A DNA stretch of 64,000 nt, taken from an uncultured Bacilli bacterium. Lineage in GTDB: Bacteria > Bacillota_I > Bacilli_A > RF39 > UBA660. The notes beneath the pieces were generated by a model, which was not told the DNA's origin, searched no databases, and was given only the letters and a program-made list of their open reading frames with translations. A program made the position numbers and the translations under genes. Where the stretch lies: assembly GCA_934155645.1 (NCBI GenBank), contig CAKPHC010000001.1, positions 31,015 through 95,014 on the forward strand, in the 5' to 3' direction. Of this stretch, positions 12,252-31,240 are shown one piece after another; position 1 is the first letter of the stretch, and each line of letters opens with the position of its first letter.

Positions 12252-12262
12252 AGACTCTCCTA

Positions 12263-14443: not shown

Positions 14444-16240
14444 TTATAGTCCTCCTCCACTACCGAAAGATGCTAATTCTTCTGGAGTTACAATTATATT
14501 AATTCTCATACGACGATGTCCGCATACAAATAACGCTTCACCTTGAGAATAACGTTTAATACTTTCTTTTTCATTATCATTTAAATCAACTAATTTCGCT
14601 AAATCTTCAGCAGCTTGTTTCTTAAGTCCCATGATTATGTAATAAGATGCATTATCAAATATTGCTTTACCTTGAGTAATTACAGAAGGAGTTGCAAAGT
14701 CACTAGGTTGTTGAGTAATTATAATAGAACCAGTATTATATTTTCTAGCACGGCGTTGGACTTGTGCTAAGAAATCAGCACCTAATGAGTTATTATCACC
14801 TAATAATACATGAGCTTCATCTACCATAAGGATTGTATCCAAATCACGATTTAAGCAAAGTCCCCAAGCATATTTTAATATGTTGAAGAAAAGTGCGTTT
14901 CTAATGTTTGCTTCAGCATTCATTAATTCTTTTATATTGAAAGTGATAAAATCACTATCATGTGTAATTGTTGTATGACCATCAAAGTAATATTTTAAAT
15001 CATTAGTTAATGGTCTTACTTTTAATTCAAGACGTTCCATAATATCTTTTTCATGAGTATGGTCAGTCATAGACATAAGTCTACCTTTTATAGTTGCGTA
15101 CACATCACTAAATGTTGGATAATCTTTTGCTGTAAAGTTATAGAAGTCTTTATCAAAATCTATACCAAAACGACGATATGTATCTTGAACTACTTCACTA
15201 AACAATGTAAGTACATCTTCTTCAATTGAAGGGTCATAATACTTCATAAATGCTTTTAAGAATTGAAGAGTTCTAGTAAGTACTGTATACCCTAGTCCTT
15301 GTTTAATTTCATCTTCATCAGCATCTATTACTATTTGAAGTGGATTAATCATACCATATTCTCCACCTTTACCAAGGTCAATAGTATCTCCACCAAATGC
15401 TTTAGTCATATCTTCAAGTTCGTTTTCAGGGTCGATTGCTACTATTTGACATCCATTACGAATATGCCCACGAAGCAATAACTTAGCAGCAGTAGATTTA
15501 CCACTACCTGATGTACCAAGTAATATAAGGTTAGCATTATTTCTGTTATTTTCCTTCTTAATTTTATATAAGAATTGGTTAAATAGAATTACACCCCCAG
15601 AGAAATCAACACCAAGTAATGTAGATAATCCTGGGTCTTTAATACTATCGAAAATAAATGGATACATTGCTGCAATAGTAATTGAAGGAATTGGTGTACC
15701 AATACGATCTTCTATATCTTGTTTAGGGAATATTGGTATTATTGATTTTAATACCTTTTCTTGTTCAAATCTTAATGAAACAGCTTTTAATTCCATTGCA
15801 TCAAGATAGTTTTTAACATTAACTTTCTTTAATTCCAAATCTTCTTTAGTATCAGCTGTAATCATAATGTGCATTTGGAAATCAAAGATTCTTGCTTGAC
15901 TTCCAGCTAACATTGTTACGAAATATTCTAGTGATTCATAGTCTAATCTAATTCTCTCTTGAATAGTACGATCACGTTCTTCTTGATATCTAGTCTTAAG
16001 TTCAGCAATTTGCTTATTTAACATCTTAGATACTGTTGAAAATGGTACTGGAATATGTTTAATAACTACTTTAATGCCTGGCATTGTAGTAAGTGTAGAT
16101 AAGTATCCTGGTGCTATAAACTTAGGATAAGATACTACACTTAATATAGTTGCATATTTATCACTTATAAAGAAATCACTATACCCAAAGCTAAGTCCTT
16201 TTGGAGCAATTTGTGATTTAAAATTCATTGAACTACTCAT
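14444..16240 (-). CDS. VirB4/TrsE/PrgJ-family conjugal transfer ATPase (C-terminal 598 aa)
   Basis: Walker A ILLGTSGSGKSTAAKLL and Walker B ILMVDEAH. Confidence 0.8.
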   Translation of the reverse strand: MSSSMNFKSQIAPKGLSFGYSDFFISDKYATILSVVSYPKFIAPGYLSTLTTMPGIKVVIKHIPVPFSTVSKMLNKQIAELKTRYQEERDRTIQERIRLDYESLEYFVTMLAGSQARIFDFQMHIMITADTKEDLELKKVNVKNYLDAMELKAVSLRFEQEKVLKSIIPIFPKQDIEDRIGTPIPSITIAAMYPFIFDSIKDPGLSTLLGVDFSGGVILFNQFLYKIKKENNRNNANLILLGTSGSGKSTAAKLLLRGHIRNGCQIVAIDPENELEDMTKAFGGDTIDLGKGGEYGMINPLQIVIDADEDEIKQGLGYTVLTRTLQFLKAFMKYYDPSIEEDVLTLFSEVVQDTYRRFGIDFDKDFYNFTAKDYPTFSDVYATIKGRLMSMTDHTHEKDIMERLELKVRPLTNDLKYYFDGHTTITHDSDFITFNIKELMNAEANIRNALFFNILKYAWGLCLNRDLDTILMVDEAHVLLGDNNSLGADFLAQVQRRARKYNTGSIIITQQPSDFATPSVITQGKAIFDNASYYIIMGLKKQAAEDLAKLVDLNDNEKESIKRYSQGEALFVCGHRRMRINIIVTPEELASFGSGGGL

Positions 16241-16791
16241 AGTGCCACCACCGTTCCGAATTCTGTTGTTTTACCACCATTCAAGAAATTATCAAGAATA
16301 ATTCTTAAATCTTCATTACTTGTTTGACTAGATAAAAGTCCACATGCAGATAAAGAGTTAATTAACATTCTAATACGTTTTTGAATTAAGTCTAAGTTAT
16401 TCTCTTTAAATAGAATATAGTACTCAGTATCAACAACATTATTATTCATAAATCCGTTTCCTTTTTGTATATCCTCACTAATCAATTTTCTAATTGCAGG
16501 GGAATTAGTTTGATTATACAAAAGCTGTAATTGTGACATATACACAGAAATATCTACAGGTCTATCAGCAACTATTAACCAGAATTCAAAATCTATTTGG
16601 TTATAGAAATTCTTCAAATTCATTAATACATTTGTTTGAGAGTCCTCATCTAATATAAAGATATTTCTTGGTGCTATTTTAACACCAGTTACTTTTAATT
16701 GATTATCTAGGATAATCATTCCATTGGTAATTGATTGAATTGGAACCCAATCCTCAGTATACTTACTTGTTACCATCTTGTTCTTCGCCAT
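16237..16791 (-). CDS. Probable N-terminal domain of VirB4, encoded as a separate 184-aa ORF
   Basis: A soluble protein between the VirB3-like and VirB4 genes. It has an ATGA stop/start overlap with the VirB4 ORF. Together the two ORFs total about 780 aa, the usual Gram-positive VirB4 length. Confidence 0.45.
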   Translation of the reverse strand: MAKNKMVTSKYTEDWVPIQSITNGMIILDNQLKVTGVKIAPRNIFILDEDSQTNVLMNLKNFYNQIDFEFWLIVADRPVDISVYMSQLQLLYNQTNSPAIRKLISEDIQKGNGFMNNNVVDTEYYILFKENNLDLIQKRIRMLINSLSACGLLSSQTSNEDLRIILDNFLNGGKTTEFGTVVAL

Positions 16792-17107
16792 ATTTATTAC
16801 ACCAACCTTTCCAATAATACCTTTGTCTATTTACAAAGAAATACTCATATATATCAGTTAATAAAACCAATACATTATGCTGATACGGTATAGGGATTAC
16901 TAAGAATCCTGTAATAGCAGCAGGAGCAACTACCGCTACTGCAACTATCCAATTTGTCAACATTCCTTGGAATATTAACATAAGTAAAAATGTTATCCCT
17001 ACTCCAGTTCCAAATATTGCTAAATCTATTCCTCGAAAAAATCCGAATATTAGTTTTCCTCGGTTAGAGTTAGCAGGTATTAAATAATTGTTATTATTTT
17101 CCACCAA
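16763..17107 (-). CDS. VirB3/PrgI-like small two-transmembrane T4SS protein
   Basis: About 114 aa with two hydrophobic helices, immediately upstream of VirB4. The start is probably TTG or GTG after an AAGGAGAG RBS. Confidence 0.45.
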   Translation of the reverse strand: MVENNNNYLIPANSNRGKLIFGFFRGIDLAIFGTGVGITFLLMLIFQGMLTNWIVAVAVVAPAAITGFLVIPIPYQHNVLVLLTDIYEYFFVNRQRYYWKGWCNKYGEEQDGNK

Positions 17108-17136
17108 TATCACTCTCCTTTTTATTCATATATATA

Positions 17137-18798
17137 TTATCTGGATAAATCATCACGACTTACGTGAGCTTTTTCTGGATTTGCTCTTCCCTTAGCTTTA
17201 TAAGATGCCTTAGTAATTCTTCCACGTTTATAATCAGGTCTAGCAGTTTTTTTATCGGCAGCCAATTTTTCTCTATATGATTTATGATTATAAGTATCAT
17301 TAGCTTTATCCATTTTATTGTAGTTGCTTTCAGCAATAGCAGCTTGAGATTCGGCTTCGTACATAATTTGTCTTGCCTTTTCTTCAGTAACATCGTTACC
17401 CATTAGGTCAACATAATGACCAGTTTGGTTACCAGCCGTCCAGTTATCTCTAGCTTCAGTAGCCAGTCCTTTCATTTCAATCATGTTATTCTTAGCTTGA
17501 TCAGCTGTGGCATCACTAATATTAAGTTTTTTACCAGCAGCAGATAATTGTGCTTTGGTTGCAGATGATTGAAGTGCAGCCAAGATACCACTCTTAGCTT
17601 TAGGATCCCCAGTTCTTGCTTGTAACGCAGTATCACCGGCAGTTCGCCATGCGCTAGCTTTCTTTCCGGTCATACCGCCTTGAATACCGGCACTTGCTCC
17701 AGAAAACAATCCTGTAACAGCGCCTCTAAATCCTCTACCAGATATAGCACCTGATACAATACCTGCCCCTGCTCCTAAAACTCCACCAGTAAAGGCAGCC
17801 AAGCCTCCGCTTGTATCTTTATCATGTTTGATTCCTAATGCATCTTTAACAAAGTTAGGCGCATCTTTAGCAAACATTAATAACGCTATTATTAAGAATA
17901 CATACAAATATCCTTTTCTAATTGCATCCGTAGGTAATGTAGCAGGGTCTAATAATGTATCATTAGCCAAAGCAGATAAAAGAAGTAATACTATATAAAC
18001 AATTCCTAATCTTACAAATATATCTAAAAATGTTGAAGTTAATTGTTTAGTCCAAGAAGCAAAAGCTCCATCTTTAGATGATTTTGGATCTATATAACTC
18101 ATGATAGGTATAGGAGCCATCATTTCTAAGATAAACATCTTAAATAGTCGCATACCAATCTTTATAGTCATTGATACAAGAATAATTACAATAGCAATTC
18201 CTGTAACAAATGCCGTAAAGGAATTAAAATTATAAGCATAATATCCATCTATTTTATCAGCATAGGTAGACATCATTATTTCAACCGCATCATCACCAGG
18301 TTTTATCGGATCAGGTGCATCCTCGCATCCAGAACAAGGTGTATAAAACGCAGCTAGTGCAGTTGAAGCAAGTAAATTAGCATTATCTGCAACATCACCA
18401 GAATTATCAGTAGCTTGTCCTAAAATAACTTTTGGAAGCATTGGAATAAATACTTCTTGTGCCCTGTTTAATAGTGGAAAAACCATCGGTAAAATAATGA
18501 TTAACGCTAACATAGTAACAGTTCTAGCAATTAACTTACCAGCACCTTTTTCTTTATCTACCATAGTGTCCGGATTAACTAAATATTTTAAGAACGAAAT
18601 AGTCAATTTAAATACCATAAATATCGCTAAAAAAGCATATATACGATTGTAAATATCACCAACCAAACCTTCAGTTAGTTTTAAATTTGCTATATCAAAT
18701 ATACCTTGCATAATGAATTCTATCAAAGAATACACACAATAATTAAGACCAGCAAACAATCCCCTAAGTCCGGTCATAAACCAGTTAGCTTCTTGCAT
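17137..18798 (-). CDS. VirB6/TrbL-like polytopic T4SS channel protein with a Gly/Ala-rich and charged C-terminal tail
   Basis: About 553 aa with many transmembrane helices followed by a hydrophilic tail. The start was moved to ATG (MQEANWF) after a GGTGGT RBS. It abuts the stop of the upstream gene. Confidence 0.55.
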   Translation of the reverse strand: MQEANWFMTGLRGLFAGLNYCVYSLIEFIMQGIFDIANLKLTEGLVGDIYNRIYAFLAIFMVFKLTISFLKYLVNPDTMVDKEKGAGKLIARTVTMLALIIILPMVFPLLNRAQEVFIPMLPKVILGQATDNSGDVADNANLLASTALAAFYTPCSGCEDAPDPIKPGDDAVEIMMSTYADKIDGYYAYNFNSFTAFVTGIAIVIILVSMTIKIGMRLFKMFILEMMAPIPIMSYIDPKSSKDGAFASWTKQLTSTFLDIFVRLGIVYIVLLLLSALANDTLLDPATLPTDAIRKGYLYVFLIIALLMFAKDAPNFVKDALGIKHDKDTSGGLAAFTGGVLGAGAGIVSGAISGRGFRGAVTGLFSGASAGIQGGMTGKKASAWRTAGDTALQARTGDPKAKSGILAALQSSATKAQLSAAGKKLNISDATADQAKNNMIEMKGLATEARDNWTAGNQTGHYVDLMGNDVTEEKARQIMYEAESQAAIAESNYNKMDKANDTYNHKSYREKLAADKKTARPDYKRGRITKASYKAKGRANPEKAHVSRDDLSR

Positions 18799-18799
18799 A

Positions 18800-19183
18800 C
18801 TAACCACCAACCTTTTCTAATCCACAAGTAGGATCATCAACGATTTTACCTTTAATACCAGCTACATTGATTAAAACTCTTACTATAAGTGGTACAAAGA
18901 ATATTGCAACTGCCGCAATTGCACGTTTAACAACTCTTGATGTAGCAGTTTTAATTTGCTTATCATCGCCTGCTAAAACAGCTTGTCCTAAATCCACTGA
19001 ACATAAAACAATTAACAAAATAGGTACTAATATTCTTATCCAATCAATTATTTCATTTATAAATTCATACGCATCAGCTGTAAAAATTCCATCACAAGAG
19101 ACAGCATAAACCGGTTTAACTGTTAAAAACGTTAAACACATAACTATAAAAATTACTTTTTTTAGTATCTTTTCTCTTAACAT
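18800..19183 (-). CDS. VirB2/TrbC-like T4SS pilin-like protein (paralog 1)
   Basis: 127 aa with a signal peptide and two transmembrane helices separated by DLGQAVLAGDDKQIKTATSRVVKRAIAA. It is a paralog of 20469..20810. Confidence 0.5.
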   Translation of the reverse strand: MLREKILKKVIFIVMCLTFLTVKPVYAVSCDGIFTADAYEFINEIIDWIRILVPILLIVLCSVDLGQAVLAGDDKQIKTATSRVVKRAIAAVAIFFVPLIVRVLINVAGIKGKIVDDPTCGLEKVGG

Positions 19184-19265: not shown

Positions 19266-20384
19266 TTATTTAACAATATATGGGTCATCAAACGTTCCAG
19301 TACCAGATACATAAGAAACATTTGGGTCTAAATAAGCTACTAATCTCAATCCTCTTGTTGTCTTAGGATATGCAACTTCCATTTTATCCCTTACATAATA
19401 AACATCTTCACTATTGTCAGAAACACCAGTAATTGTCCACCATTCATCGTAGAAATCTGAAAGAATATAATTGTAATTATAACAAGAATCATCTAATGCT
19501 TTCACACAATTACCATCCAAGCTAGCATTCATATAATCATAAGTTGGTAATAATGTAAAATATTGATTTTCAAGTATTTTTGAACACTCTGCACTTCCAT
19601 CTCTAGAAGTATCATCAAGAGCACGTTTACCAATACAAGCATTATGGGTGGTAATTAATCTTTTTATTTTTAAGAAAGTATCTTTAGTATCAGTAATTTG
19701 AGATTGTATAAAATCATTTACCCTGCTAACTTCATAATCATTAATACCATAATAATGACCAGTTTCAGTATTATAACGATCATCCCACAAAGTTCTTGCT
19801 AATTCAGGTGAACCAAGAACTTGAATTCTTCCATCTTCAAATACCTTAACTACCTGCCAAATATAATCTCCAACCTTAATGTTATTATTCAATTTTTCAC
19901 CTTTAAATACAAATACCTTAGTAGTTGTATCAGGATTCATTGGGTCAACTTGTTCTTCTTCATACAAACCATTACCAGAAGTAACAATTGTACTAGTAAG
20001 TTTTTTAAATAAAGCCCCAGTAGTATAATTGTTTCCACAATCAACAGATCCTTTATATGAATAACCATTAGGAATTTTTGTAACGTGTAACTTACCAGAA
20101 CATGTAACACCTTTCTTAGTATACTTAGATAAATCTCTCATATATCCGTTAGATACTAAAACACTTACATCAATAGTATCAGTTCCAGTTTCTGGAAGCT
20201 TACTTGGATTATCAGTATAATAAGCTTCTCCTGCTGTAGCAATTTTATCTTCCAAATCACTGTAACTTAAATTTTTACTCTTTCCACCGACTAATAGCAA
20301 CGTAATAATTATAACCAACAAAATCACTATCATTACTGATGATAACATAATAATCATTTTTTTATTCAATTTCATTTTCTTCAC
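19266..20384 (-). CDS. Membrane-anchored surface protein with a DUF6273-like C-terminal region
   Basis: 372 aa with an N-terminal transmembrane segment. The C-terminus (WWTITGVSDNSEDVYYVRD...TRGLRLVAYL) resembles the C-termini of 37723..39372 and 59299..60399. Confidence 0.45.
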   Translation of the reverse strand: MKKMKLNKKMIIMLSSVMIVILLVIIITLLLVGGKSKNLSYSDLEDKIATAGEAYYTDNPSKLPETGTDTIDVSVLVSNGYMRDLSKYTKKGVTCSGKLHVTKIPNGYSYKGSVDCGNNYTTGALFKKLTSTIVTSGNGLYEEEQVDPMNPDTTTKVFVFKGEKLNNNIKVGDYIWQVVKVFEDGRIQVLGSPELARTLWDDRYNTETGHYYGINDYEVSRVNDFIQSQITDTKDTFLKIKRLITTHNACIGKRALDDTSRDGSAECSKILENQYFTLLPTYDYMNASLDGNCVKALDDSCYNYNYILSDFYDEWWTITGVSDNSEDVYYVRDKMEVAYPKTTRGLRLVAYLDPNVSYVSGTGTFDDPYIVK

Positions 20385-20468: not shown

Positions 20469-20810
20469 TTACGCATTACCTATAGTAGACGCCTTACCAG
20501 ACCAGCAGCTCCAGAAATTAGCTTTAATTACTCCATCACTACTTTTACCAGAATCTCCTACCATGTTAATTAATAAATTAACTAATAATGGTACGAAGAA
20601 TACTGCGATAGCAGCAATTGCTCTTTTAACTAATTTAGATGTAGCTCCTTTAATTTCCTTATCATCACTTGCTAATACAGCTTTACCTAAATCAATAGAA
20701 CCCATAATAATTAATAAAACTGGAATGGCCCATTGAATAATAGTTAAAACAGATTTAAGAAATGTGATAAGTGGATTTAACTCATCACAAACAGTAGCTA
20801 AAAATAACAT
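20469..20810 (-). CDS. VirB2/TrbC-like T4SS pilin-like protein (paralog 2)
   Basis: 113 aa. Contains PVLLIIMGSIDLGKAVLASDDKEIKGATSKLVKRAIAAIAVFFVPLLVNLLIN, the same motif as paralog 1. Perfect RBS AAGGAGGAA. Confidence 0.5.
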   Translation of the reverse strand: MLFLATVCDELNPLITFLKSVLTIIQWAIPVLLIIMGSIDLGKAVLASDDKEIKGATSKLVKRAIAAIAVFFVPLLVNLLINMVGDSGKSSDGVIKANFWSCWSGKASTIGNA

Positions 20811-20896: not shown

Positions 20897-21874
20897 TTAT
20901 TTTCTAACTAATCCTAGCTTAACTAAAAAGTCCGTAAGCATAGGTTTACTAGAACGATCATCAAGTGGTTTTATTACACTAAATACTTTAATACCAGTCT
21001 CATATTCAAAAGTATCTAAGTTACCTCCTGCTACTAAAGTTTTATTAAGTACTACTTTCTGACCTTTCAATTTATTAAGTGCATTACCATCTAATTTTAA
21101 TAATTTATTCAATTTCAAAATAGATGGTTCAACTAAATATATAACATCATCACATACATTAGGATCACAATCATTCAAATCAATTACTACTACATTATAA
21201 TTACGGGCTTTTAAAAGCTCACGCATCAAATCTTGTTTACTAACTGATATTAAAGAATTATCGTTAAAATACATAAACTCACGCTTATTTACTTCTAGTG
21301 CTAATACACTAACACCATGTATAGTTTCTAGTTCTCTTTTCATTAAATAAGTTAATGTTGTAGCACCAGCATTTTGAGTAACATTTTTAATACCTATTAT
21401 TCTACTAACTGGAACAGCTTGCATAGGTCCACTAGCAACAACTTGAGTTGGTGCTTGAACATTACCAACCACAACCGGTCCAGTTGCAACGGGTTCTAAT
21501 TGATGAAGATGTGCAACATCCTTATATGTATTAGGATGATCAATTAAATAAACAATTTCCTCATACGTTTTACCAAAATTATAAAATCCCATAGAAATTA
21601 ATTTTGAAATAAAACTAGGATTATTAACAGAATTGTCATTAGGTAAAAGTAAAATAATCTTATCTACAGGTAAAGCAATAGATAGTTTTTGATAATTAAC
21701 TATATCGTGATAATTTTTTATTGCCGTTACATCTAAAATCATTCTTCCAAAGAAAAAATTAGAGAACTGACTAATAATTTCATCTATATCATACTCACCA
21801 CGTAAAGTTTTAATAATCTCTATATCTAAACCCGATAAAAGTGCTTCTTGCTGATTTGTTATTAAAACATTCAT
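20897..21874 (-). CDS. CpaE/TadZ-like protein (receiver-like N-domain plus degenerate ParA/MinD ATPase fold)
   Basis: 325 aa with a GIKNVTQNAGATTLTYLM deviant P-loop, in a Tad-locus context. Confidence 0.5.
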   Translation of the reverse strand: MNVLITNQQEALLSGLDIEIIKTLRGEYDIDEIISQFSNFFFGRMILDVTAIKNYHDIVNYQKLSIALPVDKIILLLPNDNSVNNPSFISKLISMGFYNFGKTYEEIVYLIDHPNTYKDVAHLHQLEPVATGPVVVGNVQAPTQVVASGPMQAVPVSRIIGIKNVTQNAGATTLTYLMKRELETIHGVSVLALEVNKREFMYFNDNSLISVSKQDLMRELLKARNYNVVVIDLNDCDPNVCDDVIYLVEPSILKLNKLLKLDGNALNKLKGQKVVLNKTLVAGGNLDTFEYETGIKVFSVIKPLDDRSSKPMLTDFLVKLGLVRK

Positions 21875-21885
21875 TTAATCACCCT

Positions 21886-22278
21886 CTAATAATCTTTCTG
21901 TGTACATGTAAAATCATCATCTAATTTATCAGTAAATACTGTATCAACCAATCTAGTTTCACCACTGATAGGTATTGATAGTTTAGTTCTTACTAACGGA
22001 ACTTGAAAATCAATATAAACTTTTACTGAATATATTGCACCCTTCTCTGTCATAGTTGCTGATATTACATAATCACCATTATATCCTAATCTTTTAACCA
22101 TTGTACTTATATCAGTACATGATCCATATCCTTCATTTTGTTCAATCGCATTAATAATCGCATTTTTATATCGGAATACTCTTCCGTAATTGATGACTAT
22201 AGCCATAAATCCTATGTAAACAGTTAAGAAAACTAACACTATTTGTAATAATAACGTTCCACCTACGGATTCTCTCAC
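21886..22278 (-). CDS. TadE-like pseudopilin or minor pilin
   Basis: 130 aa. The N-terminus MRESVGG|TLLLQIVLVFL is prepilin-like. GTG start with a GAGGTGA RBS. Confidence 0.35.
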   Translation of the reverse strand: MRESVGGTLLLQIVLVFLTVYIGFMAIVINYGRVFRYKNAIINAIEQNEGYGSCTDISTMVKRLGYNGDYVISATMTEKGAIYSVKVYIDFQVPLVRTKLSIPISGETRLVDTVFTDKLDDDFTCTQKDY

Positions 22279-22312: not shown

Positions 22313-22477
22313 TTAACCATTATATGTACCGTTAATTTCAGTATTGTCATTATTGTTCCATCTATTTTGAATAGAATTTAATATATTAGGTACAAACAAA
22401 GTAACGAATGCTAGAATAGCTGCTACCGCCATAATAGTTACTAATGTCATGTTTAATTCTCCAGTCGCTTCTTTCAT
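22313..22477 (-). CDS. Flp/Fap-type pilin (54 aa), absent from the ORF track
   Basis: Translates to MKEATGELNMTLVTIMAVAAILAFVTLFVPNILNSIQNRWNNNDNTEINGTYNG. It has a short charged leader, one hydrophobic helix and a polar tail, with an AAAGGAG RBS. It lies between the TadC and TadE-like genes. Confidence 0.5.
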   Translation of the reverse strand: MKEATGELNMTLVTIMAVAAILAFVTLFVPNILNSIQNRWNNNDNTEINGTYNG

Positions 22478-22546
22478 TCTAAGAACAACTCCTTTCTATT
22501 ATCTACATTAATAATTATAACCAATTCTAAACTTTATATCAATAGT

Positions 22547-23335
22547 TTATATTCCAAAAAGCATTATAGTTGACAACAATAATATAAGCATAGTGCCACC
22601 GCCAGTAACAACTAGCATAATCATTGTACGTCTTTCCATATTACTTAATCTATTTTTATATTTTACTTCTCTTGCTTTATTTTGTAAGTTAGAAACAGAC
22701 CTAGAAAACATCAATAATTGTTGATATTTATTCTCTTGTGCACCAAGACTTAATCGATATAGTAACCTCATCATACGCATAGAATCCCTTACTGGATACT
22801 TAATAGCAAAATCCATATAAGGTTGAATAGATGAATCACCAGCGTCAATCTTTGCTATCATTTCCTTCAATCCTGGTTTAAATATATCAGGAGCATCTTC
22901 AACTGATCTAGAAATTGCTACCGGAACCGTATAATTCTGGCAAAGAATTTCTAAGCTTTTTAAATAATATGGAAGCATTTGATCAATCTCATGCATATAT
23001 CTTTTATAATACTTTTTTAAAGACATGTATTGTGATTTAAATATTAAAAATGCCACTAGAATTACAGCAATAAAATTTATAAAACTAGCATTAGTAATAA
23101 ATAATATCATTGCAAACATTATTCCAAAGAAAGTATTTCTAAGACGAGTATTAAATAATTGATTAGGATCAACTTTATCACCATATTTGGCACTTACATA
23201 AAAGTCATAATCCTTTTCTTTTAAACCTTTTAAGTAAATATCATTTTCAGCTATGAAAGTTCTAGTATCAACTCTTTTGGTATAAACTAACATAATCATA
23301 ATTAGAATACCTATTATAAATATTTCTAAAAACAT
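22547..23335 (-). CDS. TadC-like (T2SS-F family) inner-membrane pilus assembly protein
   Basis: 262 aa polytopic membrane protein. It overlaps the TadB-like gene (TAATG) and is downstream of CpaF. Confidence 0.5.
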   Translation of the reverse strand: MFLEIFIIGILIMIMLVYTKRVDTRTFIAENDIYLKGLKEKDYDFYVSAKYGDKVDPNQLFNTRLRNTFFGIMFAMILFITNASFINFIAVILVAFLIFKSQYMSLKKYYKRYMHEIDQMLPYYLKSLEILCQNYTVPVAISRSVEDAPDIFKPGLKEMIAKIDAGDSSIQPYMDFAIKYPVRDSMRMMRLLYRLSLGAQENKYQQLLMFSRSVSNLQNKAREVKYKNRLSNMERRTMIMLVVTGGGTMLILLLSTIMLFGI

Positions 23336-24234
23336 TACTCAGCACCTACATTCTCGTTATAATATTTTTCTCCAGATAGAAGAAAATAACTGTTAAATAA
23401 AACTATTATATGTAAGCTTATTGTAACTATTGGGTCAGTTAATAACTGTTGATATACTTCAACCCCCAACAAGTACTGAACTAACATTACTAGTAAATAT
23501 AACATAATACCATACTGAACGAATTGTTTATGGAATCCTTGTCTATCTACTCTATCACGATATACACCTTCAACTAACATATCTATATCTTGTAACATAT
23601 TTTCAAGTACTTCTGTAGTATCACGTGAACCCTCTTTAGTAATTTGCAAAAATAACTGATGCATATTTCTAGTCATATAGAAATCATATTTACTATTCAT
23701 ATATTCTATTGATTTATCTACATCACCATTTTGATAAGCCATATCTATCATAACTTTTACATCAGATAAAACTGGGTCTTGTAATACACCAGATGAATAC
23801 ACACCTTCTAAAGCTTTAACAAAGCTTTGAGTAGTTTGAAACTCCATTATTGTATTAGTAACATATACTTGTATTTGTTCAAATATAAATTCACTATATA
23901 TTCTCTTACAACGTAAATATGTTAAGTATGGAACCATTGCAACAACTAATATCGTATATATAATAGATATTATAGGATTATAGAAATATAAATAAGAAAT
24001 TAAGAATGCTGCACCTGCAAAAGTTGCTATTTGAATCATATATTGCTTAGGTGTATATTCTTGACCTAATTCTTTTACTTTTTCACGAACCACTTTAAAA
24101 GAATAAGGTGCATACTTATTATAAATATTACCAGTCTGTGTAACAACAAATGTATATAGAGATTCACCCTTTTTATTACGATACAAAATAATAAATATAA
24201 ATATTACTAATGCAATTATTAACTCTATAGCCAT
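23335..24234 (-). CDS. TadB-like (T2SS-F family) inner-membrane pilus assembly protein
   Basis: 299 aa membrane protein, paired with the TadC-like gene. RBS AGAGGTGGT. Confidence 0.5.
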   Translation of the reverse strand: MAIELIIALVIFIFIILYRNKKGESLYTFVVTQTGNIYNKYAPYSFKVVREKVKELGQEYTPKQYMIQIATFAGAAFLISYLYFYNPIISIIYTILVVAMVPYLTYLRCKRIYSEFIFEQIQVYVTNTIMEFQTTQSFVKALEGVYSSGVLQDPVLSDVKVMIDMAYQNGDVDKSIEYMNSKYDFYMTRNMHQLFLQITKEGSRDTTEVLENMLQDIDMLVEGVYRDRVDRQGFHKQFVQYGIMLYLLVMLVQYLLGVEVYQQLLTDPIVTISLHIIVLFNSYFLLSGEKYYNENVGAE

Positions 24235-24255: not shown

Positions 24256-25533
24256 TTAAATTAATTCTTCAACAACCGAATTATTTGTAGGTACTTTATC
24301 ACCTAAATTAACAAATAAATCATCAACATTTACCCCTTGTCCTTCAAGATAATCTCTTAAATATTTAGAAGGTAATTTATATGTTTCACTACCACTTACA
24401 GTTTTACGATAAATAGTATTGTGACCAGCATTATTATTATCATCAACAAAGAACTCTGTTACTTCACAAATTTCTCTTCTAAATCGTTTTTCAACTGGAT
24501 CAAATCTACCTCTTACATTAACACCTAATTGAACATAACGATGAATTGTTTTTAAGAATTGATCAACATCAATATTAGATTCCAACAAACTATACATACG
24601 ATGCGGAATACTCTCTGCCTTATCAGAGTGAATTGTTGATAAGATATTATGTCCTGATGATATAGAGTTACGTACAGCAGTAACTGCTTCAGCGCTACGA
24701 ACCTCTGATAATAAAATCCATTTAGGATTTTGTCTCATACAAGTTACCAAAACATCAGAATATGATGCAATATTATTAGTTTTCATCGCAACTATATCAC
24801 GATGTGGAAAAATTCTATCTAAATGAAGTTCTAGTGTATCCTCTATTGTTATAATTTTTTCATTATCAGCTGTATGAGCAGCTAAATACTTAACCAACTC
24901 AGTTTTACCAGAACCAGTCTCACCACTTACAATAATATTACAATGACCTTTAACCGCTCTAATTAAAAACTCATGTATATTTAAAGTTACATATCTATCT
25001 GCTAATAACTTATCCTTTTCAAGTCTAATCTTAGCAGGTGTTTTACGAAATACTGCTGCTATACCATTTCTTGCTATAGAATCATGTACAAAATTCATAC
25101 GAAGTTCAGCAGATTCACTATCCAAAAATGGATGTGCCATATTAAAAGTTTTACCCATTACATTAGAACATTGGAAAGCTATTTTTTCTATTAACGAATC
25201 GTTTATTTCTGTTTCATCAGAACGATAAACTCCTTTATCTAAACTCTTTAACCAAACTTGTCCACCATTACTATAAGAAATATCGGTAATATTATCATCT
25301 TGTAAATACTTTTTTAAAGGTCCAAAATCTATATTAGAAAATAAATTATCATTTCTTAAATAATTATCATTTATTTCTCTTGGCTGATGAGCTTGTTGAA
25401 CAGTTGATACACTAGGTTGTCTTAATTCTTCTAAAGGAGTTGGCCCAACATCTTGTTTAGGAACCAAAGAGGGAGTAGAGACGTTATCCTGAGTTTTATA
25501 TGCTATACCTTGTAAATTCATTCCCTCATTCAT
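24256..25533 (-). CDS. CpaF/TadA pilus assembly ATPase (VirB11/GspE superfamily)
   Basis: Walker A NIIVSGETGSGKTELVKYLAAH and a typical T2SS-E fold. RBS AAGGAG. Confidence 0.8.
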   Translation of the reverse strand: MNEGMNLQGIAYKTQDNVSTPSLVPKQDVGPTPLEELRQPSVSTVQQAHQPREINDNYLRNDNLFSNIDFGPLKKYLQDDNITDISYSNGGQVWLKSLDKGVYRSDETEINDSLIEKIAFQCSNVMGKTFNMAHPFLDSESAELRMNFVHDSIARNGIAAVFRKTPAKIRLEKDKLLADRYVTLNIHEFLIRAVKGHCNIIVSGETGSGKTELVKYLAAHTADNEKIITIEDTLELHLDRIFPHRDIVAMKTNNIASYSDVLVTCMRQNPKWILLSEVRSAEAVTAVRNSISSGHNILSTIHSDKAESIPHRMYSLLESNIDVDQFLKTIHRYVQLGVNVRGRFDPVEKRFRREICEVTEFFVDDNNNAGHNTIYRKTVSGSETYKLPSKYLRDYLEGQGVNVDDLFVNLGDKVPTNNSVVEELI

Positions 25534-25534
25534 C

Positions 25535-26440
25535 TTACTCTACTCCTTCTTTTTTATTATTGTTTGTTGTATTACTATCTGTTTTATCATCAGTATTATC
25601 CTTAGTTGGATCATTATTTTCTATAATTTCATCCTCAGGAATATAAATACTCTTCTCTTCAATAAAATCTTTTAAATATTCATTACTTACTTTAGTAACA
25701 ACACCTTCAGTAGTATTTCCATCAAATCCAGTAGTATTAGGTACAGGAATAATATCAATTTTATACTGAGTACTTAAGTTACCAATAGATGCTGCTTTAC
25801 GTAATAACAAATGTATATCTTCTTTAACAGAGAAAATAATTGTAGCAGGTATTCTTGCTTCTTCACTGTTCTCAAAAACATTTAAACCATTAGATGTTTT
25901 AACCGCTCTTACTAAAACGTTAGATACCAACTTTCCTACCATAACTTTGGTATTACCATCAGCATCAGTAGTAATTGTTTGCATATAGATATCTATATAA
26001 TTACCAGGTAAGATAGAATTACTATAAGAAGTAGTTATATTAACTCCTAAATAGTACAATGTCTCATCAATAGGCATATCATAAAGTGCTGCATCAGGTA
26101 ATTCTTCTTTCTTTACTACAGTACCTTTATAGAACATACTTCCTTTAGGAATAACTGTATTAGCACTAGAATAGTAATTAATTAATTGGTTAACATTAGT
26201 AATTACATTTTCATCTATTGCTGCTCTTGCTATTTCTTTATACCCAATCATATCCTTAGTAATCTCAGTTCTAGGTTGTATCATTTTAATAGCATATGGA
26301 ACTTTAACAGGATTAACAGCATCTTTAACACGCCAGTTATACCCTACAAAAATAACAGCAATAATTAGTAATCCACAAAGTATTGTTACTGTATTTTTGT
26401 TTTTTAGAAACATTTTAAACTTTAAACCTAAATTATTCAT
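25535..26440 (-). CDS. CpaB/RcpC-like Flp pilus assembly protein
   Basis: An N-terminal transmembrane segment is followed by SAF-like and RcpC-like regions (ATIIFSVKEDIHLLLRKAAS). Confidence 0.55.
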   Translation of the reverse strand: MNNLGLKFKMFLKNKNTVTILCGLLIIAVIFVGYNWRVKDAVNPVKVPYAIKMIQPRTEITKDMIGYKEIARAAIDENVITNVNQLINYYSSANTVIPKGSMFYKGTVVKKEELPDAALYDMPIDETLYYLGVNITTSYSNSILPGNYIDIYMQTITTDADGNTKVMVGKLVSNVLVRAVKTSNGLNVFENSEEARIPATIIFSVKEDIHLLLRKAASIGNLSTQYKIDIIPVPNTTGFDGNTTEGVVTKVSNEYLKDFIEEKSIYIPEDEIIENNDPTKDNTDDKTDSNTTNNNKKEGVE

Positions 26441-26455
26441 TTCTCCATCTCCTTA

Positions 26456-26962
26456 TTATTCTTTAAATTTATCTTCTAATATAGCACTAAGAGTATTTAC
26501 TATCTCTGCTGAATCAGTTTCATAGTTGATAGAATCATTTTTCTTAAGTACTTTAGATAACCAATTATATTTTTCTCTTGCTGTAATAGTTACTGTTACT
26601 TTAGGCGGACATTCATCAATGTCATCAAAACTTATTTTATAATCACGATTGTTAGTAGCAGACTCTGCAAATCTTCTTACAAAACTTTCAACAAATTTTT
26701 CTTTAACTATTCTAACTGTACCAGGAATACCAGAAATGCAATGCATAGAGTCAGGGTCAGTTATTTCTGTTACTCCATCATAACCTACTCCCATACGATA
26801 CGCTTGATAATCTATAGCGTCAATCATTGAAGCTTCAGTTACTTCTTTTAAAATGTAATACATATCTTCATTACTTACTGTAATATTTCCAAATAAGTTA
26901 ATTAACACTATTCCTAAAAGTCCTAATACAAGGAATAAATATCCCCATACTGATGACTGCAT
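26456..26962 (-). CDS. Small membrane-anchored protein, possible Tad pseudopilin or assembly factor
   Basis: 168 aa with an N-terminal transmembrane segment. RBS AAGGGAG. Confidence 0.3.
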   Translation of the reverse strand: MQSSVWGYLFLVLGLLGIVLINLFGNITVSNEDMYYILKEVTEASMIDAIDYQAYRMGVGYDGVTEITDPDSMHCISGIPGTVRIVKEKFVESFVRRFAESATNNRDYKISFDDIDECPPKVTVTITAREKYNWLSKVLKKNDSINYETDSAEIVNTLSAILEDKFKE

Positions 26963-26981: not shown

Positions 26982-29960
26982 TTATTGAGGAATTGTCTCT
27001 ACAACAGTAAAGTATGAACGAAATCCTCCTACACTTGTATCATTAGAATGTATAAACATACTCTCATATTTTCCATTTAAATTATATTCGTTAACTCGTA
27101 CATAGTCAATATAAGCATTCTTATTTTTTATAGAATTGTACTCTTTTGTATTCTTTTTTATCTCATTTATTCTATCTTGATTTAACTCTACTACATACTC
27201 CGGCTGTGCTGTACTATCTAAGATTGGATTTAATAAATCATCGGTTATGTATATCTCTTTTCCAAACCAGTTATATCCAGGTCTTCTATTATTTGGAAAC
27301 GGATCTCTTAATGATATTGGTCTATATATATAATCACATGTTATTCCTAAGCAATTGTTATCTTTCTTTACTGAAAGACAATCATTTACACAACTTGCTA
27401 CACTGTTATATCCATCCTTCAAATAGTTAGATTCAATTTTACAATAATTTATTACTGCTTTTTCATCACTAGACGAAAAGTTTGGATTGTGTTTACAACT
27501 ATTATTTCCACTTGAACATGAATCAAAGCATTCTCTTTCACTTCCGTAATTTGCTGTATCACTTATCCAGTTTGTTCTACAGTAGTCTCTTATCTTGTCA
27601 TACTCTGCTGCTTTATATAATCTTGTACATGTATTTTCTTCATCACTCGGATTACCTCTTTGATATTTACATGTTGCTACAATATTATTGTCTATTGCTA
27701 TCGCTCCAAATAATCTTATGTTTTCTGATATTGGTGAATATATTGTGTTTCCATTTAGTATATATCCTCTAGTAGATAAGCCATATGTTATTCCTACATT
27801 GTTCTTGTTTTCTATTAATAATTCATACTTATCTTCTCTTTCAACTATTGAACATGATACCGGAGACTCTACTACATATCTACATGTATTGGTTGCATTT
27901 AAATTACTGCTTCCTTTATTTACTTTTACTTCTGTTTTATATGTATCTTTCTTTATCTTTAAATCTGTATAATATTCATGATATGGTCCATCATTTTCTG
28001 TATCACATTTTCCATTAGCGTTAACATCATACATCTTACCTGTTCCTGCACTTATACATACTGCTGGTAATTTATATGCTGTTTTATTCTTAGAAGTTGT
28101 TTTTATTAATCCATATATTGATTGATATGTTACTTGCCCATTACTGTATAATGGCACTCTATTACTTCCTCCTGCTGTTACTACCACATCATTATTTAGT
28201 AAATTTATTGTCTTTGATGGTACCAACTGTTTAGTTGTTTTTCTATTGCTTGCATTAGCATCATTGCTATTTGTTATATCTATCGTTATTGTTGCATTAC
28301 TTGAATCATATTTATATTTATTATCCAAGTCCTTAACCCATGTTGAATTTGATTCTATACTTTGAAAATTCTTTAAAATTTCTTTTAACTTAGTTCTTTC
28401 TGCTTCAGTATAACTACTTGCATAGTCAAACTTCCACTTTGCTAATTCAAATGTCATCTGACATGTCTTTTCTCCACTTAGTACTGGAGTGTATGTAAAT
28501 CCTGTTCCTGGTGTTAATGTTGTTGGTAAGCTATTACCATAGCTTATTGTACTTGATTCACTACAATTTGAACGATAGTAATTACTTGTATTCGCTTTTG
28601 TACATGTGCTTAAACTAGAGCTTGTATCAGCATCACACTCTGTACTTACACCAGAACTTGATTGATTGGCATTACAACTACTAAATCCAGGATCACTATA
28701 TCCACAAGTTGCAATGCACGTTTTCTTCTCACCTGAATTATCGCTTGCTGCTTGACAATAGTCTTCAGCGCAACTTAACAAGTTATCTCCACTTTTTCCT
28801 GAACATGTTTGCTTACATGTCTGCACTGTTCTTTCTAAACTACATGTTGCTACTTCATTTCCATTCGCATTATAAACCGCTCCATATATTGCTGCGTCTT
28901 TATATGTTCCACGATATATATTATTTTTTACATTATGTTTTAACAAATTTCTATTATTTTTTATATCATAATAAACGGTTTCAGCACCTGCGCCTTGAAC
29001 ATTTAATGTATATGTTCTTTTATCAGTTGCTTCTGTTATTGTACAAGAAACTGGTAATGTATAATTACCTAACCAAAACACATTTATTCCATGTCCTTCT
29101 TTACTTGTTACTTTTTTAACATTATTTATTCTGTTTCGAGTTTCGCCTTCATTCCATACGCTTGTATTCAATCCTTTATCTTTAGTTATCAAATATACTA
29201 AATTACCTATAAATTTATATTTATCATCACCAGTTTGACGTTTTGCTACAATTGAATTAGGAACAAATAGATATAACCACTGAGTTACTGACCCTGCTAA
29301 TTTTCCATCAGTTCCTAACCAACTAGCAATTTCATACGCAGTCCCAAAATAATAATTGCTATTAGCTTTAAACAACAATGCTGGCTCAATTGTAATATAT
29401 AAATTACCAACATCACTTTCCTTTAAATTTTCTACTCCATTACCCTTAAACTCACTTTTTATAGCTCCTAGCACTAAAGTTTTATTACCACTATTAAGCT
29501 CAAACGCTTCTTTAACCTTAGCCTCAATTGCGTTCCAGTTACCATCTTCTTTTTCAGTAAATACTTTAGGAAAAATTATTGAAGTTTTCTTAGAAACAAC
29601 TCCTCTTTTATCAAATTTACCAGGGTTACCTCCAAATTGTTGATACGCTACTTTCCCTTTTTGTGCCGAAGCATAATTAGTTACATAAGTTAAACAATCG
29701 CTATTTGTACCATTAGCGCAATAATTATTAGATCCATAATAAGTAACATTATTACCATCATATTTATACAAAGATAATCTTACAGCAAAAGACTCTACAT
29801 CACTAGGATAACTCCAATCACATCCACGTGCTGAAGAAGCACAACCACCAGGAGTAGTTGTACTATTACCTCCTCCAGTATTTCCAGCAAAAACATTACT
29901 ATTACCAAATAAAATTATTATCAAAATAAATATCATAAAAAAATTAATTATTTTTTTCAT
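26982..29960 (-). CDS. Giant (about 990 aa) secreted cysteine-rich protein, candidate adhesin or tip protein of the pilus/T4SS cluster
   Basis: Has a signal peptide and about 45 Cys, with many CxnC pairs. I recognise no domain. It is the second gene of the minus-strand operon. Confidence 0.5.
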   Translation of the reverse strand: MKKIINFFMIFILIIILFGNSNVFAGNTGGGNSTTTPGGCASSARGCDWSYPSDVESFAVRLSLYKYDGNNVTYYGSNNYCANGTNSDCLTYVTNYASAQKGKVAYQQFGGNPGKFDKRGVVSKKTSIIFPKVFTEKEDGNWNAIEAKVKEAFELNSGNKTLVLGAIKSEFKGNGVENLKESDVGNLYITIEPALLFKANSNYYFGTAYEIASWLGTDGKLAGSVTQWLYLFVPNSIVAKRQTGDDKYKFIGNLVYLITKDKGLNTSVWNEGETRNRINNVKKVTSKEGHGINVFWLGNYTLPVSCTITEATDKRTYTLNVQGAGAETVYYDIKNNRNLLKHNVKNNIYRGTYKDAAIYGAVYNANGNEVATCSLERTVQTCKQTCSGKSGDNLLSCAEDYCQAASDNSGEKKTCIATCGYSDPGFSSCNANQSSSGVSTECDADTSSSLSTCTKANTSNYYRSNCSESSTISYGNSLPTTLTPGTGFTYTPVLSGEKTCQMTFELAKWKFDYASSYTEAERTKLKEILKNFQSIESNSTWVKDLDNKYKYDSSNATITIDITNSNDANASNRKTTKQLVPSKTINLLNNDVVVTAGGSNRVPLYSNGQVTYQSIYGLIKTTSKNKTAYKLPAVCISAGTGKMYDVNANGKCDTENDGPYHEYYTDLKIKKDTYKTEVKVNKGSSNLNATNTCRYVVESPVSCSIVEREDKYELLIENKNNVGITYGLSTRGYILNGNTIYSPISENIRLFGAIAIDNNIVATCKYQRGNPSDEENTCTRLYKAAEYDKIRDYCRTNWISDTANYGSERECFDSCSSGNNSCKHNPNFSSSDEKAVINYCKIESNYLKDGYNSVASCVNDCLSVKKDNNCLGITCDYIYRPISLRDPFPNNRRPGYNWFGKEIYITDDLLNPILDSTAQPEYVVELNQDRINEIKKNTKEYNSIKNKNAYIDYVRVNEYNLNGKYESMFIHSNDTSVGGFRSYFTVVETIPQ

Positions 29961-30001
29961 GTCTTTGTTTCCTTTCATTATTTTAAATTTCTTTCCATTA
30001 T

Positions 30002-30697
30002 CTATATTTTAATCTTTACTCTTTTTTTCTTTTTAATAGTTTTAATTACTACCAATATAACAATTACAATAATTACTATAATAGAAGGAATAACTATTAA
30101 TAAATTATTAGTAATAAATGCCAAAATTATAGAAACAATACTTTTATCATTTTTTTTATTTGAATTATCTACTAAACTTTTTCTATATTTTTCAACTTGA
30201 GTTTTAAAATAATCTTCCGAATCAATTACTCCGCCATAATACTTTTGGCATAATGCAAACTCTTCAATACCTTTACACTCTTCTCTTTGTGAATAATCAT
30301 TATAGTATGGAAGTGTAATACTTTTAGTTATAATCTTATTATCTGGACATTTGGTTTCATTTGAAGTATACAAAGTGAAATCATACTTAGTACCTTCGTT
30401 TACACTTCTTAGAACTCTTATTCCATCATGTTCTAAATCATCCATATATTTAAATTCTTGACCATCAGAATCTACAATATAAAAATCTTTATCAAAATTA
30501 GTTATTAAAACATTAAAATAATATAAATGATTTTCATTGTATGTAGAATCATACAAATCATAAGTTACTTTGATATTAATTGCTTTTTCTTTCAAACTGT
30601 TTAATTCTTTATTACTACATGTCTCAGCATTAACCCTAGTAGTAACAAAAAAGCAAAGAAATAATAATACTATTTTTAACCAAATATTCTTCTTCAT
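30002..30697 (-). CDS. Secreted protein with a C-terminal transmembrane anchor (hypothetical, first gene of the cluster)
   Basis: 231 aa with a signal peptide and a C-terminal hydrophobic segment followed by KKKKRVKIKI. Confidence 0.45.
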   Translation of the reverse strand: MKKNIWLKIVLLFLCFFVTTRVNAETCSNKELNSLKEKAINIKVTYDLYDSTYNENHLYYFNVLITNFDKDFYIVDSDGQEFKYMDDLEHDGIRVLRSVNEGTKYDFTLYTSNETKCPDNKIITKSITLPYYNDYSQREECKGIEEFALCQKYYGGVIDSEDYFKTQVEKYRKSLVDNSNKKNDKSIVSIILAFITNNLLIVIPSIIVIIVIVILVVIKTIKKKKRVKIKI

Positions 30698-30814
30698 AGT
30701 GAACCCCTTCTATTATGATATTACTATTTATAGTATACTATAAAGGTAAAAAAAAAACAACGTTTTATTGAGTTAAGTCTTAAGGTGTGTTATTATAAAA
30801 CAAGAGGTGTTTAT

Positions 30815-31240
30815 ATGAAAAAAATATTATCAATAACTGTTTTATTAATATCTATTTTATTATTAACCGGATGTGGTTCTAGTAACGATAAATATTTAGA
30901 AGAAATATCTTATGATGAACTTAAAGAATTAGTAGAAAACAAAGAAACTTTTATATTAGAGGTATACCAAGATGGTTGTCGTCACTGTGCAGTATTCACT
31001 CCTCGTTTTAAAAAAGTTTTAAAAGAGTATAACATTACTGCTAAAGCAATTAACTTTGCTAAAATAACCCAAGAAGAATATGATGAATTCAGCTTAGAAT
31101 ACGGTAAAAACATTGGTACTCCTACAGTTATGTTCTTTGTAGAAGGAAATGAAAAAACTAAAATAAATCGTCTTGTTGGTGAACCTAGCGAAAAAGAAAT
31201 AATTAGAAAATTAAAACAAAATGGTTATATTGAAAAATAA
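30815..31240 (+). CDS. Thioredoxin-fold lipoprotein (CxxC)
   Basis: Lipobox LLTGC. Redox motif CRHC. The start was moved to MKKILS. Confidence 0.6.
   Translation: MKKILSITVLLISILLLTGCGSSNDKYLEEISYDELKELVENKETFILEVYQDGCRHCAVFTPRFKKVLKEYNITAKAINFAKITQEEYDEFSLEYGKNIGTPTVMFFVEGNEKTKINRLVGEPSEKEIIRKLKQNGYIEK

Follow-up and report, generated by a model that had tools for sequence, protein, structure and literature searches.

The 64-kb window analysed here, that is the whole stretch of 64,000 nucleotides taken from contig CAKPHC010000001.1 of an uncultured Bacilli bacterium, carries on its minus strand an open reading frame (ORF) of 54 codons at positions 22313..22477. Its product would rather likely be the polymerising major subunit of a thin, type IV filament-like (Tad-like) surface fibre of uncultured gut Bacilli with small genomes. 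In its architecture and in its genomic context, the predicted protein resembles the pilins of Tad systems. Profile and motif comparisons indicate that it represents a new pilin-like family with an atypical signal, and not the Flp family. The gene belongs to a module encoding a secretion ATPase and a CpaB homologue. This module is embedded in a complete type IV secretion system (T4SS) cluster, a setting that the preliminary description of this DNA had missed.

A conserved and translated gene

The ORF starts with an ATG at position 22477 and its stop codon ends at position 22313, on the minus strand. It encodes MKEATGELNMTLVTIMAVAAILAFVTLFVPNILNSIQNRWNNNDNTEINGTYNG, and both the coordinates and the translation agree exactly with those quoted in the preliminary description. 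The short polar leader, the single long hydrophobic helix and the polar tail that were recognized there are borne out. The protein is made of the leader MKEATG, an invariant ELNMT segment, a hydrophobic helix of about 20 residues running to a conserved Pro30, and a variable polar tail. A Shine-Dalgarno sequence, AAAGGAG (22489..22495, minus strand), precedes the ATG by 11 nucleotides. The motif and the start codon are those noticed before; only their spacing, given as 8 nucleotides, has to be corrected. In orthologous loci, AGGAG is kept 8 to 11 nucleotides upstream of Met1.

The length of the ORF is by itself unremarkable. With a GC content of 27%, the window holds dozens of antisense ORFs of 40 to 60 amino acids (aa), so that the case for a real gene rests on conservation. 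Among 81 distinct gene sequences, each of codons 2 to 8 is represented by two to four synonymous codons with no more than one amino-acid change. Pairwise comparison of these genes over codons 2 to 14 gives 14832 synonymous and 3859 non-synonymous differences. The proportion is reversed over codons 15 to 30 (11551 synonymous and 28203 non-synonymous). As judged from these counts, residues 1 to 14 are under purifying selection. A start at Met10, served by an internal GGAG located 8 nucleotides before it within codons 5 to 7, was considered and rejected: GGT, GGC and GGG variants break this GGAG, and residues 1 to 9 are conserved at the protein level. Since the internal GGAG is lost in variants and the upstream AGGAG is kept, translation from Met1 is secure, and the pattern of variation identifies the ORF as a real gene read from this codon. 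The frequency of short ORFs in such AT-rich DNA could suggest a chance ORF or a mis-called gene. However, residues 1 to 8 vary only synonymously in the 81 genes, the Shine-Dalgarno sequence and the promoter are conserved, and synteny extends over 80 genomes. These conservation data refute the idea of a chance ORF, which keeps a negligible probability.

The gene had been presented as unannotated. This is true only of the first-stage ORF track, which had a floor of 60 aa. In public assemblies, 195 blocks contain the identical protein as a called gene, on contigs of up to 0.2-1 Mb. Where a name is given to it or to its relatives in metagenome-assembled genomes (MAGs) of Bacilli, it is 'hypothetical protein'.

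The gene has a promoter of its own, conserved and predicted to be strong from its near-consensus sequence. The 69-nucleotide intergenic region upstream of the ORF contains a sigma-70-type promoter, TTGATA-17-TATAAT (22514..22542, minus strand), with 11 of the 12 consensus matches. In 67 of 80 related loci (see below), a promoter with at least 10 of the 12 matches is present with an identical spacing to the ATG. As a control, 6% of random 90-nucleotide windows from the same loci reach this score.

Distribution and anatomy of the family

Among 5.8 billion proteins, a word-indexed search identified 267 relatives, each of 46 to 81 residues. With the 54-aa family as profile, 1.84 billion cluster representatives were searched exhaustively (cut-off E<=1e-3), which recovered 682 clusters at 50% identity. 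This large family has no Pfam or NCBIfam model. When one genome per species was scanned, 227 stretches encoding such a protein were confirmed, and 80 loci of up to 20 kb each were kept. A relative of the gene is present in all 80 loci, that is in at least 80 species-level genomes. The loci come from uncultured gut MAGs labelled 'Bacilli', 'Tenericutes' or 'Mollicutes', from Clostridium sp. CAG:451, and from Ca. Onthousia, Scybalousia and Coprovivens, placed by NCBI in Bacilli incertae sedis. We take these carrier organisms to correspond to the order RF39 of GTDB. In a plasmid collection, neither the DNA nor the protein of the ORF was matched.

In spite of synonymous codon variation, residues 1 to 14, MKEATGELNMT[VLI][VI]T, are almost invariant, and the family consensus starts with M-K-[EA]-A-[TS]-G-E-L-[NS]-[ML]-T-[VLI]-[VI]-T. 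About 16 hydrophobic residues follow, up to a nearly invariant Pro30. The C-terminal tail, of 15 to 70 residues, is hypervariable, with nearly no conservation among 354 distinct members. Total length ranges from 46 to 103 aa with a median of 59 aa. In the protein of the window, which has 54 aa, the tail peptide is WNNNDNTEINGTYNG. All cysteines of the family are located beyond residue 40. Among the 354 members, 221 have no cysteine, 132 have two, four or six, and one has an odd number. Even numbers of cysteines, all past residue 40, are the signature of disulphide bonds, and this feature of the sequences places the tail outside the cytoplasm. Two or three paralogues of the gene are found in tandem in at least 15 loci, the last copy often ending with CP[YFW][KR]G. 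The major subunit of a filament would be expected to combine such features: an N-terminus that does not vary, an exposed tail that does, copies in tandem and a strong promoter of its own.

The leader and its possible processing

The extreme N-terminus has the layout of a class III-type signal, with the short polar MKEATG ending in Gly followed by ELNMTLVTIMAVAAILAFVTLFVP, which comprises at least 20 hydrophobic residues. After Gly6, position +1 is occupied by Glu, and position +5 by Thr11 in 78 of the 81 genes. The atypical character of the processing site, proposed in the preliminary description, holds at the level of the family, where ELNMT[VLI][VI]T follows TG and G|XXXXEY is absent.

In most of eight annotated Flp pilins, the leader carries [KR]-[DN]-E-x-G before ATAIEY. 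The last five leader residues of the 54-aa protein, K-E-A-T-G, fit the looser pattern [KR]-[DEN]-x-x-G. Thus, Gly6|Glu7, already put forward previously, is favoured as the putative processing site, and cleavage after Gly6 would leave the N-terminal peptide ELNMTLVTIMAVAAILAFVTLFVPNILNSIQNR. Another register is given by the best local hhalign alignment with Flp, itself sub-threshold, which places Glu7 on the leader Glu and Asn9 on Gly. Cleavage after Asn9 would produce a mature protein starting with MTLVT...

The leader pattern is shared with a second family. The motif M[KR][ED][AS]x[GS] followed by a hydrophobic helix occurs in two to four genes per 20-kb locus, all adjacent, and these include the family of the neighbouring 130-aa protein. 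The members of the latter start with M-[RK]-[ED]-[AS]-x-G and a hydrophobic helix (MRESVGGTLLLQIV.., MRDAIGQVFTLQ.., MKEAIGQTISLQ..), which is the same six-residue pattern as MKEATG. Within the 64-kb window, the 54-aa ORF is the only one to show the pattern with a Met start, the 130-aa gene having it behind a GTG start.

Relationship to Flp and other pilin families

Flp pilins are defined by the motif G|XXXXEY at the cleavage site. For comparison, annotated proteobacterial Tad loci from plasmids were used to build reference alignments and hidden Markov models (HMMs), with the Tad locus found in one of the 80 loci (L060) as a positive control. Membership of the Flp/Fap family, which the preliminary description had proposed, is not supported. 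The 54-aa ORF has no match to PF04964 at E<=10, and none of 51 diverse members of its family matches this model. A search with the HMM derived from real Flp pilins recovers the canonical Flp of L060 and misses the 54-aa family. Neither G|XXXXEY nor EY occurs in any of the 81 genes and 354 proteins. Among the other ORFs of the window, none has the Flp cleavage motif at its beginning. When the family was aligned to real Flp pilins with hhalign, values ranged from 0.3 to 17.8%. The best of them (17.8%, score 22.0) stands above 30 column-shuffled controls, which all gave at most 2.3% with a maximal score of 15.4.

Pfam and NCBIfam scans of the ORF returned only noise, and a search of PDB sequences with the family profile returned only ATP synthase b and stannin, that is single-helix noise. 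The family matched most frequently, and the one pilin family to give any Pfam signal, is the archaeal Pilin_N (PF07790), found weakly in 11 of the 51 members with a best E of 0.0053, below threshold. As for the pilins of T4SSs (VirB2/TrbC, PF04956/PF18895), the 54-aa protein has no HMM match to them and contains a single helix, not a two-helix hairpin.

One locus allows a direct comparison. In L060, a canonical Firmicute Tad locus (L060:15336-19491) is located a few kb downstream of the MKEATG-type array of the same MAG. It encodes an Flp with the sequence ..GKRG|QALVEYILI.., two TadE, a TadZ with KGGVGKTT, CpaF and T2SSF. Because L060 carries both this locus and the 54-aa family, the two coexist and are distinct lineages.

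The likeness to type IVc pilins of the Flp/Fap family (PF04964; Caulobacter PilA, Aggregatibacter Flp1) is nevertheless worth describing. In both cases, a prepilin of 50-80 aa consists of a leader, a single hydrophobic helix and a short tail. Its gene lies next to those of CpaB and of an ATPase of CpaF/TadA type, [KR][DE]xxG closes the leader, and tandem paralogues are common. In contrast, the 54-aa family shows no HMM or profile similarity to Flp, has ELNMT[VL] after the Gly instead of xxxxEY, and its leader of only six residues is invariant. Moreover, several of the proteobacterial Tad loci that were fetched have their peptidase gene adjacent or close to flp, whereas none adjoins the 54-aa gene, and no TadB, TadC or TadE is recognisable at its locus. 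Archaeal type IV pilins (PF07790) also have a very short leader ending in Gly, without a requirement for Glu at +5. However, the 54-aa family stays under the gathering threshold of this model and owes its scores largely to the hydrophobic helix, the carriers are bacteria, and no FlaK/PibD-type peptidase was seen.

Proposed function and alternative explanations

Considering these properties, the following sequence of events may be envisaged. The gene would be transcribed from its own strong promoter. The precursor would insert in the membrane by its single hydrophobic helix, with the variable tail outside. M-K-E-A-T-G | E-L-N-M-T would serve as a class III-type signal; a peptidase encoded elsewhere would cut it after Gly6, or it would be retained as the handle by which the machinery recognises the subunit. 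The T2SSE ATPase, acting via the two adjacent membrane proteins and aided by CpaB and by a TadZ-like protein, would then lift the subunits out of the membrane. The helices would stack into a filament that exposes at its surface the hypervariable tails, often with disulphide bonds. Minor or tip subunits could be provided by the 130-aa protein and, in other genomes, by the additional paralogues. Given that the module lies within a T4SS cluster devoid of a relaxase, contact between cells, which this secretion system needs, is probably provided by the fibre.

Several observations weigh against such a filament. In five loci (L016, L058, L060, L063 and L072), no ATPase module lies within 10 kb upstream of the pilin array, which itself remains grouped with the 130-aa and 325-aa genes and with those of the T4SS. 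The 54-aa family has no significant similarity to any pilin family. Its +5 residue is Thr, without the Glu of type IV and Flp pilins. Residues 1 to 6 are far more conserved than cleaved leaders usually are, so that the N-terminus may be retained uncleaved. A prepilin peptidase of the A24 family, searched for by motif and with a local A24 HMM, was found neither in the 64-kb window nor in the 80 loci of up to 20 kb; the search for a TadV-type enzyme, suggested in the preliminary description, therefore gave no candidate there. A membrane protein of the cluster was considered as the peptidase and rejected (0.2% with A24 in hhalign). Finally, the structural model of the 130-aa protein has no significant fold match in the PDB according to Foldseek, and the 299-aa and 262-aa proteins are not demonstrably T2SSF by Pfam, by hhalign (2-8%) or by Foldseek of the 299-aa model.

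Part of these observations would be accommodated if the protein were a small bitopic component belonging to the T4SS or to the ATPase platform, such as a stabiliser, an assembly factor or a variable surface antigen, which remains in the membrane and does not polymerise. Even in the five loci mentioned above, the gene is not separated from the T4SS half of the cluster (130-aa, 325-aa, VirB2-like, VirB6 and VirB4 genes). The absence of a peptidase and of a recognisable platform protein would be natural, the invariance of the whole N-terminus, 'leader' included, would be that of a retained interaction surface, and the cluster already has two VirB2-like pilins. However, tandem arrays, a hypervariable disulphide-bonded tail and an own strong promoter are typical of filament subunits and not of stoichiometric parts of a machine. 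In addition, the leader pattern is common to a larger protein of pilin-like layout, and CpaB and the T2SSE ATPase are components of filament assembly. Such a membrane component is thus considered unlikely. Still within the filament hypothesis, the preliminary description had read the protein as an Flp pilin. In this case it would be a bona fide, divergent Flp (type IVc) pilin, cut by a TadV/CpaA encoded elsewhere and assembled by orthologues of TadA, TadB and TadC. Size, architecture and the neighbourhood of the ATPase and CpaB genes fit, the leader ends with [KR][DE]xxG as Flp leaders do, and the hhalign score of 22.0 (17.8%) exceeds those of all 30 shuffled controls (maximum 15.4). This reading is made quite improbable by the lack of any PF04964 match in the 51 members, by the failure of the local Flp HMM to recover the family, by the absence of G|XXXXEY from all 354 members, by the presence of a canonical Tad locus beside the 54-aa family in L060, and because homology to TadB, TadC and TadE is not demonstrable.

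A conserved N-terminus, a hypervariable and often Cys-rich C-terminus and tandem paralogues are also met in many families of precursors of secreted or modified peptides, whether of the type of ribosomally synthesised and post-translationally modified peptides (RiPPs), bacteriocins or pheromones. The N-terminus would then be a leader or signal, and the Cys-rich tail the product. But the conserved part of the 54-aa family includes a hydrophobic helix of 20-25 residues, atypical for such leaders, and 221 of the 354 members have no Cys. Furthermore, no modification enzyme, C39 peptidase or ABC exporter is present in the cluster, and the association with the secretion ATPase and T4SS genes is strict. 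A peptide precursor therefore appears very improbable.

Going beyond the single protein, it may be imagined that a whole order of uncultured gut Bacilli with small genomes keeps a core chromosomal, relaxase-less T4SS fused to a Tad-like filament of a MKEATG|ELNMT pilin (no Glu5, no EY), processed by a non-canonical peptidase or left uncleaved, for attachment to other cells and for exchange of DNA or protein with these. The apparatus would then be a tool related to a dependent lifestyle, parallel to the T4SS of Patescibacteria. This larger proposal is tentative, and in its entirety it should be regarded as rather doubtful. The carrier Bacilli are abundant, uncultured and auxotrophic members of human and animal gut microbiota. 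A lineage-wide, highly expressed, surface-exposed and antigenically variable filament subunit coupled to a secretion system would be a prime candidate for their interaction with other cells. The 54-aa family would also widen the range of class III signals, with an invariant six-residue leader, Glu at +1 and Thr at +5, and would add a case of a Tad-like module built into the T4SS of a single-membrane (monoderm) bacterium. The invariant 14-residue N-terminus would also be a handy sequence marker.

Organization of the Tad-like module

The genes around the 54-aa ORF are all on the minus strand. The Tad setting proposed in the preliminary description stands as far as a T2SSE ATPase and an adjacent CpaB homologue are concerned. 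The labels given to the two flanking genes, 'TadC-like' and 'TadE-like', could not be confirmed.

The T2SSE-family secretion ATPase, of CpaF/TadA/VirB11 type (24256..25533), matches PF00437 with E 2.8e-26. The VirB11, TadA and TrbB models give similar scores, none of which reaches the equivalog cut-off. Next to it, the 301-aa protein (25535..26440) matches TIGR03177 (E 2.9e-8) and PF16976 (E 1.7e-5), both below cut-offs. Its family aligns with annotated CpaB at 95.5% in hhalign (E 1.4e-8, 164 columns), and on this profile comparison the protein is a true CpaB/RcpC homologue.

Two polytopic membrane proteins of 299 aa (23335..24234) and 262 aa (22547..23335), both without a Pfam match, are encoded between the ATPase and the 54-aa ORF. 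The 262-aa protein, in the position of a platform protein, gives at best faint T2SSF signals. With the local T2SSF HMM, five of its orthologues come just below the true T2SSF matches, with E 2.9e-4 to 0.011 among 4048 ORFs. By hhalign its family reaches 2-4% with T2SSF, and PF00482 gives E 1.5 in only 2 of 35 members. The 299-aa protein, a possible second platform protein, reaches 6-8% with T2SSF at the level of its family, and an AlphaFold2 (AF2) model of it, all helical with pLDDT 73, finds nothing in the PDB with Foldseek. Nothing was found either when the sequences and profiles of the 299-aa, 262-aa and 325-aa proteins were compared with the PDB. The 299-aa and 262-aa proteins share a topology in which an N-terminal transmembrane (TM) helix and one or two more TM helices precede a soluble, helical domain (about 135 residues), with further TM helices at the C-terminus. 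Size, position and topology resemble those of TadB and TadC, which would fit a role as platform. That the two are paralogues of each other was rejected, the 21% obtained by hhalign coming from alignment of the N-terminal TM helix only.

On the other side of the 54-aa ORF, the 130-aa protein (21886..22278) is a candidate minor pilin, with the leader M[RK][ED][AS]xG and a hydrophobic helix, a GTG start and no Pfam match. It does not resemble TadE. In hhalign it reaches 0.7-3.6% with TadE, and the local TadE HMM (PF07811 family) finds only the genes of L060. Its AF2 model (pLDDT 81, pTM 0.69) predicts helices at residues 5-47 and 54-64 followed by strands at 70-76, 81-93, 98-107 and 123-126. This predicted order of elements, a long N-terminal helix and then a beta-sheet, is that of a type IV pilin, and the model thus makes the protein look pilin-like though not TadE-like.

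The next gene encodes a 325-aa protein (20897..21874) with a degenerate P-loop (..GIKNVTQNAGATTL..) and a weak similarity to the ParA-like domain of TadZ/CpaE, without any Pfam or PDB sequence match. Its family aligns with TadZ/CpaE at 40.8% in hhalign (E 2.8e-4) over the P-loop region, where NAGATT replaces GxGKTT, the Lys of the Walker A motif being lost. This alignment suggests a relative of TadZ, in which the ParA/MinD-like core would be a non-catalytic scaffold.

Upstream of the CpaB gene, a DUF5411 protein with an N-terminal TM helix (26456..26962, E 4.7e-39) is encoded. In Clostridia, DUF5411 has been reported from predicted pilus operons, as a neighbour of CpaF and PilC (PMC9523054). 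Further upstream is the gene of a 998-aa secreted Cys-rich protein without a Pfam domain (26982..29978), poorly conserved (BLAST hits in 11 of the 80 loci) and of variable length, from 906 to 998 aa in near-identical strains; it is likely a candidate variable adhesin. The first gene in the order of transcription encodes a 231-aa secreted, C-terminally anchored protein without a Pfam match (30002-30697).

The order ATPase-299-262-pilin-130-325 is kept in 72-78 of the 80 loci, and the longer order DUF5411-CpaB-ATPase-299-262-pilin-130-325 in about 72.

The type IV secretion cluster and related systems

From 9291 to 30697, all genes are on the minus strand and form a 21-kb chromosomal cluster that combines a monoderm-type T4SS with the ATPase/CpaB module. 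After the 325-aa gene come two VirB2-like proteins of the T4SS_pilin family (PF18895), of 113 aa (20469-20810) and 127 aa (18800-19183), separated by the gene of a 372-aa protein without a Pfam match (19266-20384). In many genomes (for example L005, L018, L019, L028 and L040), the second VirB2-like protein finds its best match in a secreted protein of 380-500 aa and not in a small pilin of about 127 aa. The cluster continues with a TrbL/VirB6-like protein (17137-18810, PF19597), a TcpE/VirB3-like protein (16763-17113, weak match to PF12648), a TraC-like protein of 184 aa (16237-16791, weak match to PF26593) and a VirB4-like ATPase (14444-16240, PF19044 and PF12846). It ends with a SpoIID and CHAP wall hydrolase (12263-14410, PF08486 and PF05257), a 250-aa protein without a match (11532-12284) and a VirD4 coupling protein (9291-11513, PF02534 with E 2.6e-61). 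No relaxase or integrase was seen in the cluster, which is flanked by housekeeping genes. In 49-51 of the related loci, VirB6 and VirB4 are reached within the 10 kb fetched, with a median identity of about 80% for VirB4.

The closest annotated relatives of the secretion ATPase, at about 29% identity, belong to the 'CpaF/VirB11 family' of Gram-positive conjugative plasmids, such as E. faecium pZB18 (NC_016967.1, L097), a C. perfringens plasmid (NZ_CP073071.1, L096) and plasmids of Listeria and Bacillus. In these plasmids as well, genes for two membrane proteins (235-276 aa) and for a 120-aa protein with an N-terminal TM helix come after that of the ATPase, and a 50-aa single-helix protein, a TrbC/VirB2 gene and VirD4 are found nearby. 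However, only the ATPase is clearly homologous to its counterpart in the window. Comparison by hhalign gives 24% for the 130-aa protein with the 120-aa protein and 18% for DUF5411 with a 122-aa protein. Homology of the 54-aa pilin-like protein to the plasmid 50-aa protein was rejected (0.3%). Furthermore, the plasmids are mobile, whereas the cluster of the window is chromosomal, without a relaxase and conserved across the whole lineage. Thus, the association of a secretion ATPase and two membrane partners with a monoderm T4SS cluster is not unique to these Bacilli; the pilin-like family and the chromosomal, relaxase-less and lineage-wide status are. The papers on pCP13 and pCS1 make no mention of a VirB11-like ATPase or pilin. 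In the L096 and L097 plasmids, the small genes are all annotated as hypothetical, and a CPBP intramembrane protease gene is located upstream.

Patescibacteria keep a relaxase-less chromosomal T4SS of MPF-FATA type with arrays of VirB2-like pilins (PMC12102498). The two situations have in common small genomes, VirB4, VirB6, VirB3-like proteins and PF18895 pilins, and the lack of a relaxase. In contrast, the text of that study contains neither 'Tad' nor 'CpaB' and has VirB11 only for one cluster of Gram-negative type (PMC12102498), and the 54-aa pilin-like family is not VirB2-like. No published description of such a system in RF39 was found in the literature.

Some further features of the window may be mentioned. 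Genes of the thioredoxin fold flank the cluster on both sides, at 5688-6215 (TraF/Thioredoxin) and 30785-31240 (Thioredoxin/PedC-like). Their products may contribute to disulphide formation in the Cys-paired tails and in the 998-aa Cys-rich protein. At the start of the window, a protein combining Schlafen AlbA_2 and HATPase_c_4 domains is encoded at 64-1374, and three tRNA genes are present (1503-1652; 44809-44881), two of which are adjacent.

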